64,000 nt of DNA from a virus, in the IMG/VR virus record IMGVR_UViG_3300030098_003519, positions 1 through 64,000 of that record, one strand, 5' to 3'. This document shows positions 895 through 58,600 of the stretch, piece by piece; position 1 is the stretch's first letter; each line of letters starts with the position of its first letter. Below the pieces are notes generated by a model. It was given only the letters and a program-made list of their open reading frames with translations, made no database searches and was not told where the DNA came from. Both the position numbers and the translations under genes were made by a program.

Positions 895-945
895 ATTATA
901 ATATAACATAAAAAAAGACCCCGAAGGGTCTTAGTGTGACAGTTA
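895..945 (-). promoter_or_regulatory. Putative early promoter of the helicase (AACTGTCACAC box, hairpin, extended -10)
   Basis: Minus strand AACTGTCACAC, then the terminator hairpin, then TGTTATATTATAAT. The same layout recurs at 1715-1770. Confidence 0.55.
910..932 (-). terminator. Intrinsic terminator with UUCG tetraloop
   Basis: Minus strand reads AAGACCC-TTCG-GGGTCTT followed by a T-run, just after the 943-1230 gene. Confidence 0.85.
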
Positions 946-1230
946 TTTGATTGCCACTCTCTCTGGTACTTTTACATCCAAGTTCTGTAGAAAGTTTACT
1001 ACAAATGCTTCGAGATAGATCAGAGGAAGTATAACAAAATCAATTCCATTTAACTGTTGTATTTTGTTAACAACTGTCTTAACTTTACTCTCTTGTTTAA
1101 TATCTTCAGTCACGATTGGCTTAGCAACTGGAGTATTTAGAGGTATAGATTTAGAAACAGTTGTTGATGTTTTACGAGTGCGTCTTTTGCGTGGAGTTGT
1201 TGATCTCTTTGCTGTAGATGCAGTTGGCAT
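943..1230 (-). CDS. Hypothetical protein, Arg/Lys-rich N-terminus and hydrophobic C-terminal segment
   Basis: ORF track gives 943..1245 with a TTG start; ATG at 1230 (MPTAST) is preferred. Contains TAKRSTTPRKRRTRK and FVILPLIYLEAFVVNFL. Confidence 0.75.
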   Translation of the reverse strand: MPTASTAKRSTTPRKRRTRKTSTTVSKSIPLNTPVAKPIVTEDIKQESKVKTVVNKIQQLNGIDFVILPLIYLEAFVVNFLQNLDVKVPERVAIK

Positions 1231-1245
1231 AGAATAATAATGCAA

Positions 1246-1712
1246 TGGGAAACTATAGGGATGTTAGTTCTTTCTGTGGTGGCGACCCACGAGGCACATC
1301 CATCTCCTCGTAAATTAGTGTGTTGAGGACTTACAGGGCGTAATTTCTCAACTGAATTGAGACAACCATAGACCCTTGCCTAAATGATGTGGGACTTACA
1401 ACTTCAAAACTGTCTTTTCAGATGTCCTAAGACATCAGCAGTACAAGAGGTCTCCAAACATAAAGAGCAGTTTTCCACAGAATGAATCAAAGATCATCTG
1501 ATTGTTGCTCACCCCTGCCTTGCGTTTGCCCAAATAATGTGTGAGGGAGTGGGGCAATGATCTAGGTTTCACCCAGTTGCCCAAATTTACCTACTGGGAA
1601 TCGCTTACACCTGAACCCCCACCACTTTCAACTCTAAGGAGTTTCTACGATCCTAACATAAGTTAAGTCTGACGTAGGTTTGGGGCAGTAGAACCACATA
1701 TCCCTCAACATT
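1246..1712 (-). ncRNA. Putative large structured non-coding RNA or tandem ncRNA cassette
   Basis: No credible ORF. Hand-counted 60-nt lines are ~50% GC, above other intergenic DNA here. Many stems: TGAGGGA/TCCCTCA, CCCAGT/ACTGGG, AAAACTG/CAGTTTT, GATGTC-TTAG-GACATC, CTCAA/TTGAG, ACGAGG/CCTCGT. Lies directly downstream of a promoter. Confidence 0.65.
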
Positions 1713-1714
1713 TA

Positions 1715-1770
1715 TATAATAGCATAAAAAAACCCCCTGTATAGGGGGCTTGTGTCAGTTTGTTGACTGG
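1715..1770 (-). promoter_or_regulatory. Putative early promoter driving the ncRNA region, overlapping a terminator
   Basis: Minus strand CCAGTCAACAAACTGACAC, hairpin, then TGCTATTAT (extended -10). Same architecture as 895-945. Confidence 0.55.
1726..1751 (-). terminator. Intrinsic terminator after the DUF262-HNH gene
   Basis: Minus strand GCCCCCT-ATAC-AGGGGG followed by TTTTTTT. Confidence 0.8.
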
Positions 1771-1771
1771 T

Positions 1772-3232
1772 TTATGCTGCTACTGGAACTCTCTTGATTT
1801 GAACAGGTACAGTTGCACCTTTTCTCAAGTTAGCACTAGCATATACTAATGCAGCATTAGATCTGGTAGTAGATCCACCCTTACTCCAAGGATAATGATG
1901 GTCAACATGAATAATGCTACCATTTAATATATCCCTACAATTAATTTCCTTCTCAGTTTCAGGACACTTACCACCTTGTTCTCTCCACAAATCAAATAAG
2001 AAAGAAACATCCCTATTGAAATCTCTTTGAGGATCTCTGGAGATTATAAGACCATCTGAAAAATCAGATAATGATGCAATTAACTGATTCTCACGAATAG
2101 TTACAAAACTCTTCTGAGCAGATCTCTGAATACCAGCATATCCACGATCATCTGTTCCAGTTGGTTTTCCATAATTAGGAGAATTTTTATCCTTTTCAAT
2201 TTTTCTCCATAGAATAGTAGGATCTGCCAATCGTGCTGTTTGTGCATCACAATACTCCTCAAAGAATTTCTTCTTATCAGTATAAACAATATTATTATTG
2301 TTCATATAATTTAAGAGTAATGCAAGATCAACAATATTAGTATTTGTCCTTTTACTGCAATCAGCTACCTTGTCACCATCTTCTCTGAATTGAACTAAAT
2401 CAGCAATCTGTCTTATAATCTTATCTGCTCTACTGAATGATTGCACTTCAGGAGTACGATCACCATAAGCAGCATCCCTACTCTTTTCTCCAAATCCAAC
2501 AGTTCCTCTTGCACATAAAACAGCAACATCTACAACGAAGGCATCAATCATACGTCTATTGAATCCTTTCTCATTGTATATTGTTTCAAGTTTTTTCCTA
2601 TTCTTTTTAACACAATCTCTAACTAAACCTGAGAATACATACATCTTACAGTTACGCTTTTCTTGAGCGTTAAGAGTCATTCCCTTGTTGATAGATTCAA
2701 ATAAATCTGCTAGATCTTCTCTTGTTCCACTTTCAACTATTTTAACAGTAATGTCAGTATTTTCAATGTAAGTTCTAAATTGTGGATCAAGATCGTCAAA
2801 TAGTTTTGCACCATTAGTTGCTTCATATATTACAGGATTATTATCACTACCACCAACTTCATACTCACCTAAGAATAAAGGAAAGAGTCCTTTGAAAATT
2901 CCAAAGAAGAAATCAGTTATACATCTTGTCCTATTATTACCATCTATGGTAATATATCTGTAACCTTTATCTAAAAGTCCTTGATAAAATATATAATCGT
3001 CATGCTTTCTACCATATTTCTTTTCAACAGATCCTTGACATTTAGCTATGTCTGCAAGATATATTGAAGTTGGTGCTTTACCATTAAGTAAAGATCTCAT
3101 GTACTGTTGATTATTTTCAGTTACCCATCTATGGTAAGACTGAAACGAATCATCGAGATATATGCCGTTATCTCTCATAGTGGTGGCAAGATAATATGCC
3201 TTCCACCAATGGGCATCAATTCTAGTACGCAT
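1772..3232 (-). CDS. DUF262 (ParB/Srx-fold) plus C-terminal HNH endonuclease, GmrSD-like
   Basis: 486 aa. YITIDGNNRT matches the DGQQR-type motif and LFESINKGMTLN fits DUF262. C-terminal HVDHHYPWSKGGSTTRSNAALVYASANLRKG is an HNH signature. Confidence 0.8.
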   Translation of the reverse strand: MRTRIDAHWWKAYYLATTMRDNGIYLDDSFQSYHRWVTENNQQYMRSLLNGKAPTSIYLADIAKCQGSVEKKYGRKHDDYIFYQGLLDKGYRYITIDGNNRTRCITDFFFGIFKGLFPLFLGEYEVGGSDNNPVIYEATNGAKLFDDLDPQFRTYIENTDITVKIVESGTREDLADLFESINKGMTLNAQEKRNCKMYVFSGLVRDCVKKNRKKLETIYNEKGFNRRMIDAFVVDVAVLCARGTVGFGEKSRDAAYGDRTPEVQSFSRADKIIRQIADLVQFREDGDKVADCSKRTNTNIVDLALLLNYMNNNNIVYTDKKKFFEEYCDAQTARLADPTILWRKIEKDKNSPNYGKPTGTDDRGYAGIQRSAQKSFVTIRENQLIASLSDFSDGLIISRDPQRDFNRDVSFLFDLWREQGGKCPETEKEINCRDILNGSIIHVDHHYPWSKGGSTTRSNAALVYASANLRKGATVPVQIKRVPVAA

Positions 3233-3317
3233 TGTTTTTTCTTTAGTAGTTTACCCAGACCTGATCGTATTCTCTGCGATAGAGTGAGACCTGCCTCGAT
3301 ATTTGTTTACGTTGTAT

Positions 3318-3346
3318 AGTATATAGTAGGTTTTTAGATTTGTCAA
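3318..3346 (-). promoter_or_regulatory. Sigma70-type promoter of the DUF262-HNH gene
   Basis: TTGACA (3346-3341), 17-bp spacer, TATACT (3323-3318). Confidence 0.85.
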
Positions 3347-55633: not shown

Positions 55634-58600
55634 TCACTGCTCCTCCCAGGTAAGACTTCCTGAAATCTTAGCAGTTGATAATCCAACATTGTAGTCGTTA
55701 TCTGTAGAAGCACAAAGATATAAACTATCAATCTTGTCAGTCAATGGGAAGGATAAGTATTCTTTATTGTAATCAAAGTAAGTAGCAAGATCATAATTCT
55801 CACCAGATGCAGGAGCATATAGACTCGCAACAATAGTTCCAGTCTTAGGAATAGGTGCTCTTATCTGTGGATTCACTTTAACAGATGACAATTGATCTAA
55901 TGTGAACTTAGATGTTGTAGGAGATGTAATTGTTCCATCCTTTGGAGTTGTCTGGTTCTCATAAAGGAAGTTACCATCTTTAAGTAATACAATATTATCG
56001 TTGGTTGATTCTAATGCTGAGAAATACCAACCATCCTCTTCAATATTCTGCGTTCTAGACATTCCTCTATTCTCTAAAAGACCAAGAACAGAAATCTTCT
56101 TCTTAGCAGCATCAGTTTCATAATAACCCCTGAAGTATCCATAGACACCTTCAGTCTCTTCTCTTCTGATAAATTCTGCATCAGATGGTTTAGTAGCAGT
56201 ACTGTTATGAGCAATATTAGTAGTTACACTAACATAGAATACAGTAGTAGTAAGTCCAGTTGTTCTAACTCTTAATGTTCTACTATAAACTCGGCCACTA
56301 TCCGTAGTTGTTGATCCACTAAAGTCAGTACCACCACCACATGCTGTACCATCCATGATTGGATCAACTGCACGAGGATACTTGTGAGTACTACCGTTAT
56401 TATCAAATGTACATGTGAATGCAAATGCACCTTGTAGAAGTTGGAGAGTATCATTGGCACTAAAACCATGAGAAGTAGAAGTTGTTATCTTCATCAATCC
56501 AGTAGCAGAATCATATGATACTGCACTTGATCCATCAGCAATATTCAAGAATGAACCAGAAGATTTTCTAACTGCAGCAGTCTTAGTAGTAGCAGACTCA
56601 ACATAAGTATGTGCTCCACTATAAGTAGATAGATTTAAAGCAATCTTAGTGGGTTTACCTCTCTTACCGATGTTCCAGTTACCATCACTTGTAGCTGGAT
56701 TTTCTTGCAATATTGGTGAAGTACCAGTATTAGCAGTTATAACATCTGTCTGGAAGATAGGAGACTTAATCATATCCACCTTAAGAAGAGCATCAGATCC
56801 AGTAGAAAGTCTTGTTGGATATACCTGAGTTCTGTTTCTTACATCCTGACCAGTACTACTTTGAATAAAGTCTTTACACTCTAATCCAATGAGTGGTGTT
56901 ACACGATTTGTAATAATTTTTATACTTCCTTTGGCAGCACCAGTTGCACTCAATGGAGCACTTAGATATACCTGTTTAGTAGATGGTTCAACATAGGTAA
57001 TCTCAATATTTTGATCTAACGATTCACCAGTAATCACTTTTGAACCAACATAGTACGATGTTGCAAGTCCAGAAATTATACTATTCTGATCAGCAAGTAA
57101 ATATGGATCAGTAGCATTCGTAGCATTACCTACAGTAATACTTGTTCCTGCACCAGTTGCAAAGGTTCTAGCAGATCCATAAACTTCTACAGGTGTTGGA
57201 GTTCCATGACTGAATAGTTTAACAGTACCACGGTCACCACCATCAATGTAGTATGAAGCACCATACTTGATTATATTCTCTGAGTGTGATGCATAATCTG
57301 CCTGTTGACTTCTTAGAGTATCACTATATCCAAAAGAATTGCTACTTCCTCCACCATAAACCATGTATGTAATAGGTAAAGTCGCATTACCCAGTGAGGA
57401 GACCTTCAGTTGGTTAGATGCTCTCAAATGGTGTACACGCACCCAACGTGCTTCTCCAGCACTCACAGGGACATACGCAAGGAATAGAGCACCAACAGCA
57501 CCATACCATGAGAATTCAATCTTGTACATGGTAACCTTGTCAAAGGCAAGATCCCAAATACTAGTATCTTCTGTTTGAGCACCAGTTGCAGTAAGGACAG
57601 GACTACCAGCTCTCTTATCTGCTACAGAATCACTATAAAGTAGAGTGTCTGTTGCACCATCTAATCTATCTCCACTAAATCTTGAACGTGGAACACGATA
57701 CTCATATACTGTATGATATGGAAGAGCAACGTTTTGTTGTACCCAATTATCATAGAAACTATTAACATCATCTATCTGACTCTTCAGTGTAGCAGTACTA
57801 GTTAAAGTTGTGTCAATATAACCAACAGTTGTACTTGAGTCAGTTGGTTTTGCATACTTGTATGGGAACATACCAGAATGCTTTGTATTATTCTGGTGAT
57901 ATGCTTTAGTATCACTATTAATTAAACTTCCAGTTACTGGTTGCACAAATGGTACAGGAGTAACTAAAACATGACTCGATATACCAACATTATGATCGGA
58001 ACTAAGAGAAACATCTGACTCAGTAGCATCCAAATTCTTAAGTGTTACTACTGTTGCAAACTGATCAACACCATCCACATTACTTGTAGTTACACCACTA
58101 ATTGTTTTAATCTTATAGATCTTATTATCAGTAAATCCACCACTAAGAGCAGCATCATTAGTTCCTTTATCGTATCTAACATACTGATTAGCAGCAAGAG
58201 GAGTTACCCAACCTCCAGAATGATAAAAAGTAGGAACAGTTGAAACACCAACATTTAAAGTAAATGATGTTGTACTATTAACCTGTACAATATTAAATCC
58301 AGTATTTCTACCAGCATTCGTATACAAATCTGGGTAGAATTTAATTCCACCAGGCCCTGCTTTAGGGTTAGCATCACCAGGAGTAGCATAACTGAATTGG
58401 CAAGTCATACCAATACCAGCAACGGTAAGATACTTACCAAGTTTAAATCCATGCGGTTCATGAGTCGTAATGACCATCAAACCAGTATCTTTATTATAAG
58501 TTGCGTTACTTACACTTCTTGCAATACCTACAAGAGATACTTTGTTACCACTAGCAGTAACAGAAGTAATTCCAGTCTTATGTGGATCCTGTAGAAGTGA

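Follow-up and report, generated by a model that had tools for sequence, protein, structure and literature searches.

Conserved structured RNAs of T4-like cyanophages have been described as the manA (RF01745), wcaG (RF01761) and PhotoRC-II (RF01717) motifs, which occur nearly only in marine metagenomes and T4-like cyanophages, lie in likely 5' untranslated regions and have no proven function (Weinberg et al. 2010, PMC2864571). A second kind of element, the promoter-early stem-loop (PeSL), is a short promoter/terminator unit of T4-type phages with about 50 copies per genome in phi1 and RB49 (Arbiol et al. 2010, PMC2839356), and phage T4 itself possesses two stable RNAs, rnaC (species 1, 139 nt) and rnaD (species 2, 119 nt), in the annotation of NC_000866. 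The region reported here lies on the minus strand of a stretch of 64,000 nt (the window, to which coordinates refer unless another sequence is named), i.e., positions 1 to 64,000 of the IMG/VR virus record IMGVR_UViG_3300030098_003519. Four separately conserved RNA modules, in their order along this strand A, C, B1, and B2, are situated there at 1709..1253 ahead of a gene for a 95-aa protein. Judged from comparison with its relatives, domain A represents in this phage an RNA family of P-SSM2-type cyanomyoviruses that is listed in no catalogue and has one copy per genome.

Domain A (1540..1709) constitutes the single-copy core of the element and forms a three-way junction. It is closed by the helix P1 (8 bp, 1708-1701/1548-1541), which is followed after a UAU bulge (1700-1698) by P2 (3 bp, 1697-1695/1551-1549); one arm contains P3 (6 bp, 1691-1686/1596-1591) stacked with P4 (4 bp, 1685-1682/1619-1616), and the second arm contains P5 (5 bp, 1582-1578/1556-1552) and the P6 hairpin (1576-1562). 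The minimal form of the domain is a three-way junction of around 115 nt, and for the minimal copy of cyanophage P-SSM2 energy alone gives the same six helices. A covariance model (R1) built on a seed of 11 short domain A copies matches the window only once, at 1540..1709, where it scores 113.1 bits (E 3.9e-26) and the loop of P4 contains an extra 60 nt; over 100 sources it finds 101 domain A copies.

Among 92 distinct rows of the resulting alignment, 95.1% of 2691 pair cells are paired. The initial annotation had proposed a check for covariation among homologues, and in these rows both sides change in 21 of 31 pairs; compensatory cells number 361, compared to a mean of 97.3 in shuffles (none of 500 reached 361) and to 22-39 in slid controls, figures that have to be read with the alignment being fitted to R1, which favours pairing statistics. 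All eight pairs of P1, which the initial annotation had recognized as the closing stem TGAGGGA/TCCCTCA, change on both sides in some homologue, and three or four different Watson-Crick pairs are found at each of four positions of P3. The four pairs of P4, predicted there as GCCCCA/TGGGGG, change in one partner alone (C-G to U-G). Covarying positions include G-U among their pairs (e.g., AU 33, GC 33, and GU 17 at one P1 pair), which fits an RNA read from the minus strand. Mutual information over 95 distinct rows recovers pairs of P1, P2, P3, P5, and P6; concerning tertiary contacts, the same analysis exhibited only these helices and lineage-linked positions of the linker between P6 and P5, and none with the bulge described below. 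It is considered highly probable that a structured RNA family of this architecture really exists.

Some details of the fold differ from those first proposed. GGGCAA/TTGCCC had been taken for a possible loop pseudoknot; its pairing is found in 475 of 475 cells, but as the nested helix P5 and not as a pseudoknot. CCCAGT/ACTGGG had to be given up as an inner stem, as it is paired in only 346 of 569 cells (60.8%), whereas CAGUAG pairs with the upstream CUACUG in 552 of 558 cells (98.9%), forming P3. The two further stems CTACG/CGTAG and AACTC/GAGTT exist, and both are situated in the insert of the P4 loop.

Equally characteristic of domain A are around 34 unpaired bases that are nearly unchanging, distributed over a 19-nt bulge, an 8-nt junction, and the GGUGAAACC tip of the P6 hairpin. 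The 3' bulge UUCAGGUGUAAGCGAUUCC (1597..1615), between P4 and P3, is nearly invariant; each of 24 full copies obtained with an anchor excluding the bulge retains the final 16 nt of it, two of them having one U-to-C change. The junction GUAAAUUU (1583..1590), between P3 and P5, is at least 97% conserved in 95 distinct rows, with 76 of the 101 rows found via an anchor that excludes it. A second anchor, outside the 22-base motif of the first, added 36 loci, comprising 25 real copies (one of them cut by the contig end) and 11 chance matches to coding DNA. Neither the junction nor the P6 tip varies in rows from the first anchor, and the two independent anchors each bear out the conservation of the other's stretch.

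The apical loop of P4, on the other hand, is variable. In the window it carries an insert (1620..1681) with the helices CUACG/CGUAG and AACUC/GAGUU and, at its end, a conserved joiner, GAAAGUGGU, which recurs among the P4 regions of 125 copies. In these copies the region ranges from 18 to 226 nt, falls into few types, and can hold whole other modules. Relatives with the same type of insert keep the helices with other letters, as is the case for both of them in the single-cell record AG-345-L05.

The search against all 4227 Rfam families, including manA, wcaG, PhotoRC-II, glnA, ribozymes, riboswitches, GOLLD, ROOL, and HEARO, gave no match at the gathering score in the window, in agreement with the initial annotation, which had found no known cyanophage motif by eye, and none in 14 related loci. 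With E up to 10, six matches were obtained on 1100-1900, all far below gathering: four are driven by the upstream terminator (around 1717-1834) and two are snoRNA/lncRNA noise. One of these four, STnc560 (1626-1834, 16.3 bits), also reaches into domain A. Six related loci searched with E up to 5 contained noise only. A literature search found no paper describing the domain A RNA; it may be among the 8495 unnamed candidate RNAs of 29-151 nt that have been predicted from IMG/VR (PMC10690425). The present analysis contributes the corrected fold for the window, the permuted order in P-SSM2, the tests of copy number and host range, and a palindromic hexamer. Like manA, wcaG, and PhotoRC-II, the window RNA is conserved and structured, and it shares their distribution and their likely location ahead of genes; it differs from them in its fold, in the incoherence of the genes downstream, in its modular, nested architecture, and in having no match to their covariance models.

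The closing helix, the covarying stems, the invariant bases of junction and internal loop, and the variable apical loop are typical of aptamers, such that domain A might be an orphan riboswitch-like sensor, the three-way junction of which binds a small molecule reporting the state of the host and tunes early expression. Cyanophages do carry other candidate riboswitch motifs, manA and wcaG (PMC2864571). However, the genes downstream of domain A share no function, no conserved expression platform is found (the gap to the next open reading frame, ORF, comprises 5-396 nt of varied content), and no Rfam riboswitch model matches, such that a sensor of this kind is considered very unlikely.

The borders of the four domains distinguished in the initial annotation coincide with modules that are conserved separately in relatives, its domains B, C, and D corresponding to modules C, B1, and B2. 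Module C (1391..1532) is facultative and multi-helical, is closed by GGGC/GUCC, and ends in GUAAGUCC; of its 35 predicted pairs, 7 remain paired although both partners change among 8 homologues. Module B1 (1326..1381), equally facultative, is a hairpin-in-stem that also ends in GUAAGUCC, with 4 of 20 pairs compensatory in 9 homologues (e.g., UCUCAA/UUGAGA vs. UCUCUG/CAGAGA). The motif GUAAGUCC lies at 1399-1391 in C and at 1333-1326 in B1, each time facing GGC(A) on the 5' strand, and a related GUAAGCGAUUCC is present in the domain A bulge (1607-1597); to judge by these letters, the two may represent a shared internal-loop motif or protein site.

Module B2 (1259..1311) consists of 21 invariant nt, a covarying 4-bp hairpin (1290-1287/1279-1276), and an invariant A-rich stretch of 17 nt ending in ACAUCC. 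The B2 pattern was found in 102 IMG/VR stretches, corresponding to 93 distinct flanked copies, with UCGG/CCGA, UGGG/CCCA, GUGG/CCAC, and GUAG/CUAC as hairpin variants. Its model, R2, matches the window at 87.4 bits. A pseudoknot of CGAGG/CCUCG and GGAUGU/ACAUCC is possible, both stems of which are invariant. R2 yielded just three copies from 100 sources lacking the exact motif, namely those of the window and of two related loci (L026 and L087), and the latter two each lose one pair of stem 2 without compensation. B2 resembles the translational operator of T4 gene 32, described as a 5' pseudoknot followed by an unstructured leader (PMC10690425), in being compact, possibly pseudoknotted, and followed by 15-22 A/U-rich nt up to a start codon; unlike that operator, it precedes diverse small ORFs and not gene 32, and its candidate pseudoknot stems are invariant. 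Within B2 (1302-1253), a Shine-Dalgarno-like GAGGAG and a subsequent AUG open a frame of 16 codons, MDVPRGSPPQKELTSL; in P-SSM2 (L001, 2568-3089) the corresponding frame reads in frame into PSSM2_070. As the end of this frame differs among loci, it is probably not a conserved peptide.

Directly 3' of B2 a self-complementary hexamer, CUAUAG (1253..1258), is situated, and relatives possess palindromes at this place too. Perfect palindromes account for 7 of the 9 hexamer types and for the hexamers behind 21 of 23 distinct B2 cores, compared to an expectation of 1 in 64 for random hexamers, and L087 adds an eighth palindromic type. Where B2 copies have like flanks, their hexamers differ by paired changes at mirror positions. 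Our best guess for the hexamer is a putative site at which two RNA molecules pair with each other. It is followed by an A/U-rich spacer of 22 nt without Shine-Dalgarno sequence (1231..1252) that extends to the start codon; in 77 of the 93 distinct B2 copies, 15-22 nt separate the hexamer from the first ATG.

The initial annotation had further suggested that TGTTGAGG and CCTCAACA pair over a long range and thereby close a structure of around 390 nt. This closure is not borne out, as the context of CCTCAACA follows B1 in only one of nine aligned relatives. Of the broader suggestion, a large noncoding RNA or an array of small RNAs, the structured phage RNA has held up, and a chain of independently folding modules is favoured over a single RNA closed by a long-range helix by the other orders, the nesting, and the frequent absence of modules in relatives, and by the lack of conservation of the closing helix.

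A chain of this kind might be processed into an array of small RNAs, the modules being cut apart as the T4 tRNAs and rnaC and rnaD are from one precursor, or might contain a new self-cleaving ribozyme. The modules are indeed autonomous and reshuffled, three of them in the window end in the GUAAGUCC-type motif followed by ACA-rich linkers, related loci carry a module with a tRNA-like acceptor and T-arm, and the two stable T4 RNAs are located beside tRNAs. The contigs from RNA libraries give no mapped ends, however, the program ARAGORN calls no tRNA or transfer-messenger RNA in the window and none in 19 related loci, no Rfam ribozyme matches, and R1 reaches no more than 3.9 bits on rnaC and rnaD, such that an array or ribozyme is regarded as quite unlikely.

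The region shares with rnaC and rnaD the similar size, the presence in a T4-type phage within a polycistronic early region, and the unassigned function, and rnaC ends in a tRNA-like arm (a T-arm-like hairpin), as does a module of related cyanophage loci. In contrast, the T4 RNAs are situated in a tRNA cluster, and no tRNA was called near domain A. Identity with them was rejected, the best score of R1 on rnaC/rnaD, with filters off over T4 69000-75000, having an E of 8.3.

Relatives carry extra modules without a counterpart in the window. The tRNA-like one, found downstream of domain A in seven loci (L004, L040, L045, L051, L105, L037, and L056), comprises around 130 nt with acceptor stem, T-arm, and a long, unlike middle; ARAGORN does not call it, and it has no Rfam match at the gathering score in L004, L045, L051, L105, L037, and L056, nor at loose E-values in L004. 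Directly after domain A in L013 (around 1285-1334, minus strand), L005, L010, L012, L062, L078, and L103, there is a module of around 50 nt resembling an H-type pseudoknot, with a 9-bp stem and a loop pairing with an upstream 6-7-mer, which covaries among loci by eye; Rfam does not contain this module, and neither does the window.

Concerning its distribution, BLAST against 50,697 phage records matched 10 of them, namely three of P-SSM2, one of P-SSM5, and six "Marine virus AG-345" single-cell records, the match being split into separate blocks. At least 120 IMG/VR contigs contain the exact 22-base core motif, whereas a search of 185,579 prokaryote species genomes, where diverged copies were not sought, gave no exact match. 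R1 finds domain A once in the phage's own record of 89,493 bases, once in P-SSM2 and in P-SSM5, which served as positive controls among cultured phages, and once in each of three long IMG/VR records. In P-SSM2, domain A occupies 56,699-56,818 and is preceded by B1/B2 at a distance of around 600 nt. B2 occurs once in the own record and in P-SSM2 and in none of the three long records. One IMG/VR contig, L016, contains two domain A copies around 900 nt apart (1218-1337 and 2127-2258), a standard one scoring 141 bits and another, divergent in its 5' half, scoring 57 bits.

The modules are found in many combinations and orders and are often absent. B1 is nested in the P4 loop of domain A in three loci (L009, L010, L103), and in P-SSM2, P-SSM5, and AG-345-L05 the order is permuted, such that the block corresponding to 1382..1255 comes first, then a variable ORF, and the 5' block of the window last. 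The variable ORF is PSSM2_070 or an acidic ORF with a weak match to ArdA. Relative to the window, L001 (P-SSM2, 2501-3341), L002, and L003 thus display a circular permutation of the type B1-B2, variable ORF, A, which, by analogy, a circle-mediated exchange as in PeSLs would yield. In L003 (AG-345-L05, 2648-3052) the very acidic ORF has its match to the anti-restriction protein ArdA at E 0.0048, below the Pfam cut-off, and genes nearby are methyltransferases.

Concerning INDEPENDENCE from the downstream gene, the ORF families following 144 copies are diverse (ORF071-like 31, DUF7717 31, helicase 13, basic protein 13, and others). A gene-specific switch was rejected on the wide variation of the genes after domain A, and so was an obligate partnership with the Arg-rich basic protein, the family of which is found near only 13 of the 144 copies (directly downstream in 8 and upstream in 5).

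Much in this arrangement recalls the PeSLs: the location in a hyperplastic region, an early sigma-70-type promoter overlapping a terminator stem-loop (1751-1716 only), flanking small genes that are swapped between relatives, and an order permuted as circle-mediated exchange would give. In contrast to the PeSLs, the promoter here precedes a 115-nt three-way junction and further modules with at least 31 covarying pairs, and the element is single-copy. The idea that the whole element is a PeSL cassette was rejected, each of six genomes or records having one domain A copy compared to the approximately 50 PeSLs of the published description.

The region could also be regarded as a PeSL-like recombination cassette acting at the DNA level, the conserved blocks providing homology for gene shuffling and not an RNA. 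Different genes on both sides, a hypervariable region, and the permuted order would fit, as would the segment 1751-1716, which agrees with the description of PeSLs. In 7 of 80 listed rows with the motif (L006, L017, L020, L061, L069, L073, and L080), moreover, the core motif lies within 70 nt of a contig end, as at an assembly break, which suggests that assemblies break there because the flanks differ within populations. In 21 of 31 pairs, however, both partners change in a compensatory manner, with G-U pairs as intermediates, which shows that the folded single strand of this polarity is under selection, and the blocks are single-copy, unlike the roughly 50 PeSLs per genome (PMC2839356). A DNA cassette as sole function is thus already contradicted by the covariation and appears hardly credible, whereas recombination could be a side effect.

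A sigma-70-type promoter-like site, TATACA-16-TATTAT with TG before the -10 box (9 of 12 matches), is located at 1716..1743, its -10 box ending 8 nt ahead of the TGAG of P1. By itself this site is weak, as the promoter scan found one site compared to 3.9 expected in shuffles. In relatives, the TATTATATAAAT context of the window recurs in 17 of 90 distinct contexts upstream of domain A, and by manual reading of the rows other -10-like hexamers end 7-10 nt before P1 in around 24 further contexts, several with a good -35, i.e., in around 41 of 90 overall; another 27 contexts exhibit a different conserved hairpin. The promoter that the initial annotation had assigned to the region is supported by the site and by these hexamers, whose fixed distance to P1 makes a transcript start at the first bases of this helix (around 1709) likely. 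Upstream, an intrinsic-terminator-like hairpin of the GmrSD/HNH-like gene (1730..1751; 9-pair stem with 5 G-C pairs, then a T run) overlaps the -35 box, as in the PeSL cassette.

Contigs from four RNA-library runs (three studies) cover 1228-1760, among them variants in which the P4 loop is short or contains B1, and one contig of 407 nt spans 934-1310, i.e., B2 and the basic-protein gene. These data are assembled contigs and establish presence in RNA libraries, but not ends, strand, or level. In none of the four runs does a contig cover 1802-2006 in the upstream gene, and cover of 900-1227 is low; as relatives have other flanking genes and the data are contigs, no conclusion is drawn from these gaps.

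Terminator-like hairpins between domain A and the next ORF are rare (9 of 116 distinct loci) and commoner after the first downstream ORF (32 of 109), which argues for a leader rather than for a terminated small RNA. Such a leader might act purely in cis, its folds burying the 5' end, blocking 5'-end-dependent or exonucleolytic decay, and setting translation, with domain A needing no partner. Transcripts starting 8 nt behind the -10 box would have paired first bases, the scarcity of terminators after domain A agrees with this idea, and B2 is positioned, with the hexamer and 15-22 nt, immediately before a start codon in most of its distinct copies, one of the RNA-library contigs holding B2 and the ORF together. 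For such a role any stable hairpin would suffice, yet the roughly 34 unpaired bases of domain A are nearly invariant; domain A and B2 each occur in a single copy, whereas many genes should be preceded by a general shield, and no exonuclease-resistant RNA family of Rfam matches. A purely cis-acting leader therefore seems rather doubtful.

Position and pattern could also suit a processive antiterminator that acts in cis, riding RNA polymerase past the terminator stem-loops in the hyperplastic region. An RNA of this kind is put of phage HK022; to our knowledge, no such mechanism has been reported for T4-type phages. Domain A follows directly after an early-type promoter, is single-copy, contains invariant unpaired bases, and is independent of the identity of the downstream gene, with terminators further downstream. 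The terminator at 932-915, however, is followed by a promoter-like -10 for the helicase gene, such that read-through is not required; antitermination is regarded as highly improbable.

The explanation preferred here for the region as a whole, tentatively and at somewhat less than even confidence, is an early-transcribed modular unit or leader with a core that binds a specific factor. In this model, 1751..915 would form one early transcription unit, consisting of the PeSL-like terminator/promoter, a start at around 1709, domain A, the facultative modules C, B1, and B2, the hexamer, the 22-nt A/U-rich spacer, the gene, and a terminator. Domain A would be an autonomous folded domain binding one partner, either a small ligand or a protein of host or phage, perhaps a nuclease or RNA polymerase, and would act regardless of which gene is downstream. 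C, B1, and B2 would be interchangeable, separately folding plug-ins forming a nuclease-resistant leader, in which B2 would set up the start of the next gene. The covarying helices, the nearly fixed unpaired bases, the single copy, the insert-tolerant loop, the position at the head of the unit, and the lack of a tie to one downstream gene together point to a partner-binding domain. That the core works through a bound trans factor, and not as a gene-specific switch, a ribozyme, or a pure stabiliser, is possible and is put forward with more reserve than the unit itself. The fold, its conservation, the copy number, the shuffling of modules, the place of the promoter, and the presence in RNA libraries are shown, whereas the transcript start, the binding of a partner by domain A, and all functional steps are inferred.

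Several observations weigh against this explanation. The folding energy of the whole 467 nt gives z = -0.95, with 19 of 100 shuffles folding equally well, that of the opposite strand z = -0.75, and that of domain A alone z = -1.24; over all energy tests z ranges from -0.75 to -1.82, such that the energy of a single sequence is not significant and the case for an RNA rests on the comparison with relatives. Most of the compared rows, in turn, were found via exact anchors inside domain A, which inflates the apparent invariance, and it is the conservation pattern only from which the idea of a partner is drawn. The rarity of terminators behind domain A equally fits a purely cis-acting leader. In the RNA libraries, the summed depth of 0.16-50 in the bin specific for the P4 insert of the window does not place domain A above its neighbours (0-54 in the ORF bins), the depth in thousands on the core (1556-1637) adds together many phage variants and does not reflect abundance, and carry-over of DNA is possible. 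Finally, R1 with E up to 1 finds nothing in the cultured cyanomyoviruses Syn9, S-PM2, P-SSM4, P-HM2, and P-SSM7, which indicates that the element is dispensable for cyanomyoviruses in general.

GOLLD and ROOL are large "ornate" phage-associated RNAs with a conserved core and variable peripheral domains, for which self-association has been reported. The window RNA resembles them in its conserved core, its variable periphery, and its link to phages, and the hexamer behind B2 could mediate self-association, an idea derived from the palindrome; unlike them, it is much smaller and has no Rfam match. An unlikely but more far-reaching version would make domain A the core of a new class of "ornate" RNA acting in trans early, i.e., a particle with plug-ins that self-associates through the hexamer and captures or disables a nuclease, a defence protein, or RNA polymerase, or else a new class of ribozyme.

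The gap of 525 nt in which the element is situated, between the ORFs at 1772..3232 and 943..1245 (both minus strand), contains no credible ORF, and its G+C content is 0.40-0.47, compared to 0.295-0.375 in the flanks, such that its description as a GC-rich region free of genes in the initial annotation applies. Its longest frame (49 aa, 1435..1584) straddles the junction of domain A and module C; a protein-coding reading was rejected, the frame continuing differently where another module follows domain A. The upstream gene (1772..3232) encodes 486 aa with a match to HNH_4 of Pfam (27.7 bits) and one to GmrSD_N below the cut-off. The first gene of the unit (943..1230, with its ATG at 1230) encodes the basic protein of 95 aa, with the motif PRKRRTRK and a hydrophobic tail, for which no Pfam or PHROG family matched. 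An intrinsic-terminator-like hairpin (915..932) closes the unit and is followed by an SF2 helicase gene. By manual reading, the segment 892-932 comprises this terminator and a TG-extended, -10-like TATATT before the helicase gene, which together look like a second PeSL-like unit.

Phages of Prochlorococcus are among the most abundant viruses of the ocean, and we know of almost nothing about their RNA biology beyond a few orphan motifs. The present family adds well over 100 natural variants with very clean covariation and a nearly invariant unpaired core, a natural variation that structure work can already treat as a set of mutagenesis data. It exhibits a rare building principle, in which a fixed domain is combined with modules nested in its loop, strung behind it, or moved across a gene, and its self-complementary hexamer offers a directly testable idea of RNA self-pairing. 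The element would head an early transcript in a region of restriction, anti-restriction, and methylase genes, and this position makes it a good candidate for an RNA involved in host takeover or counter-defence.

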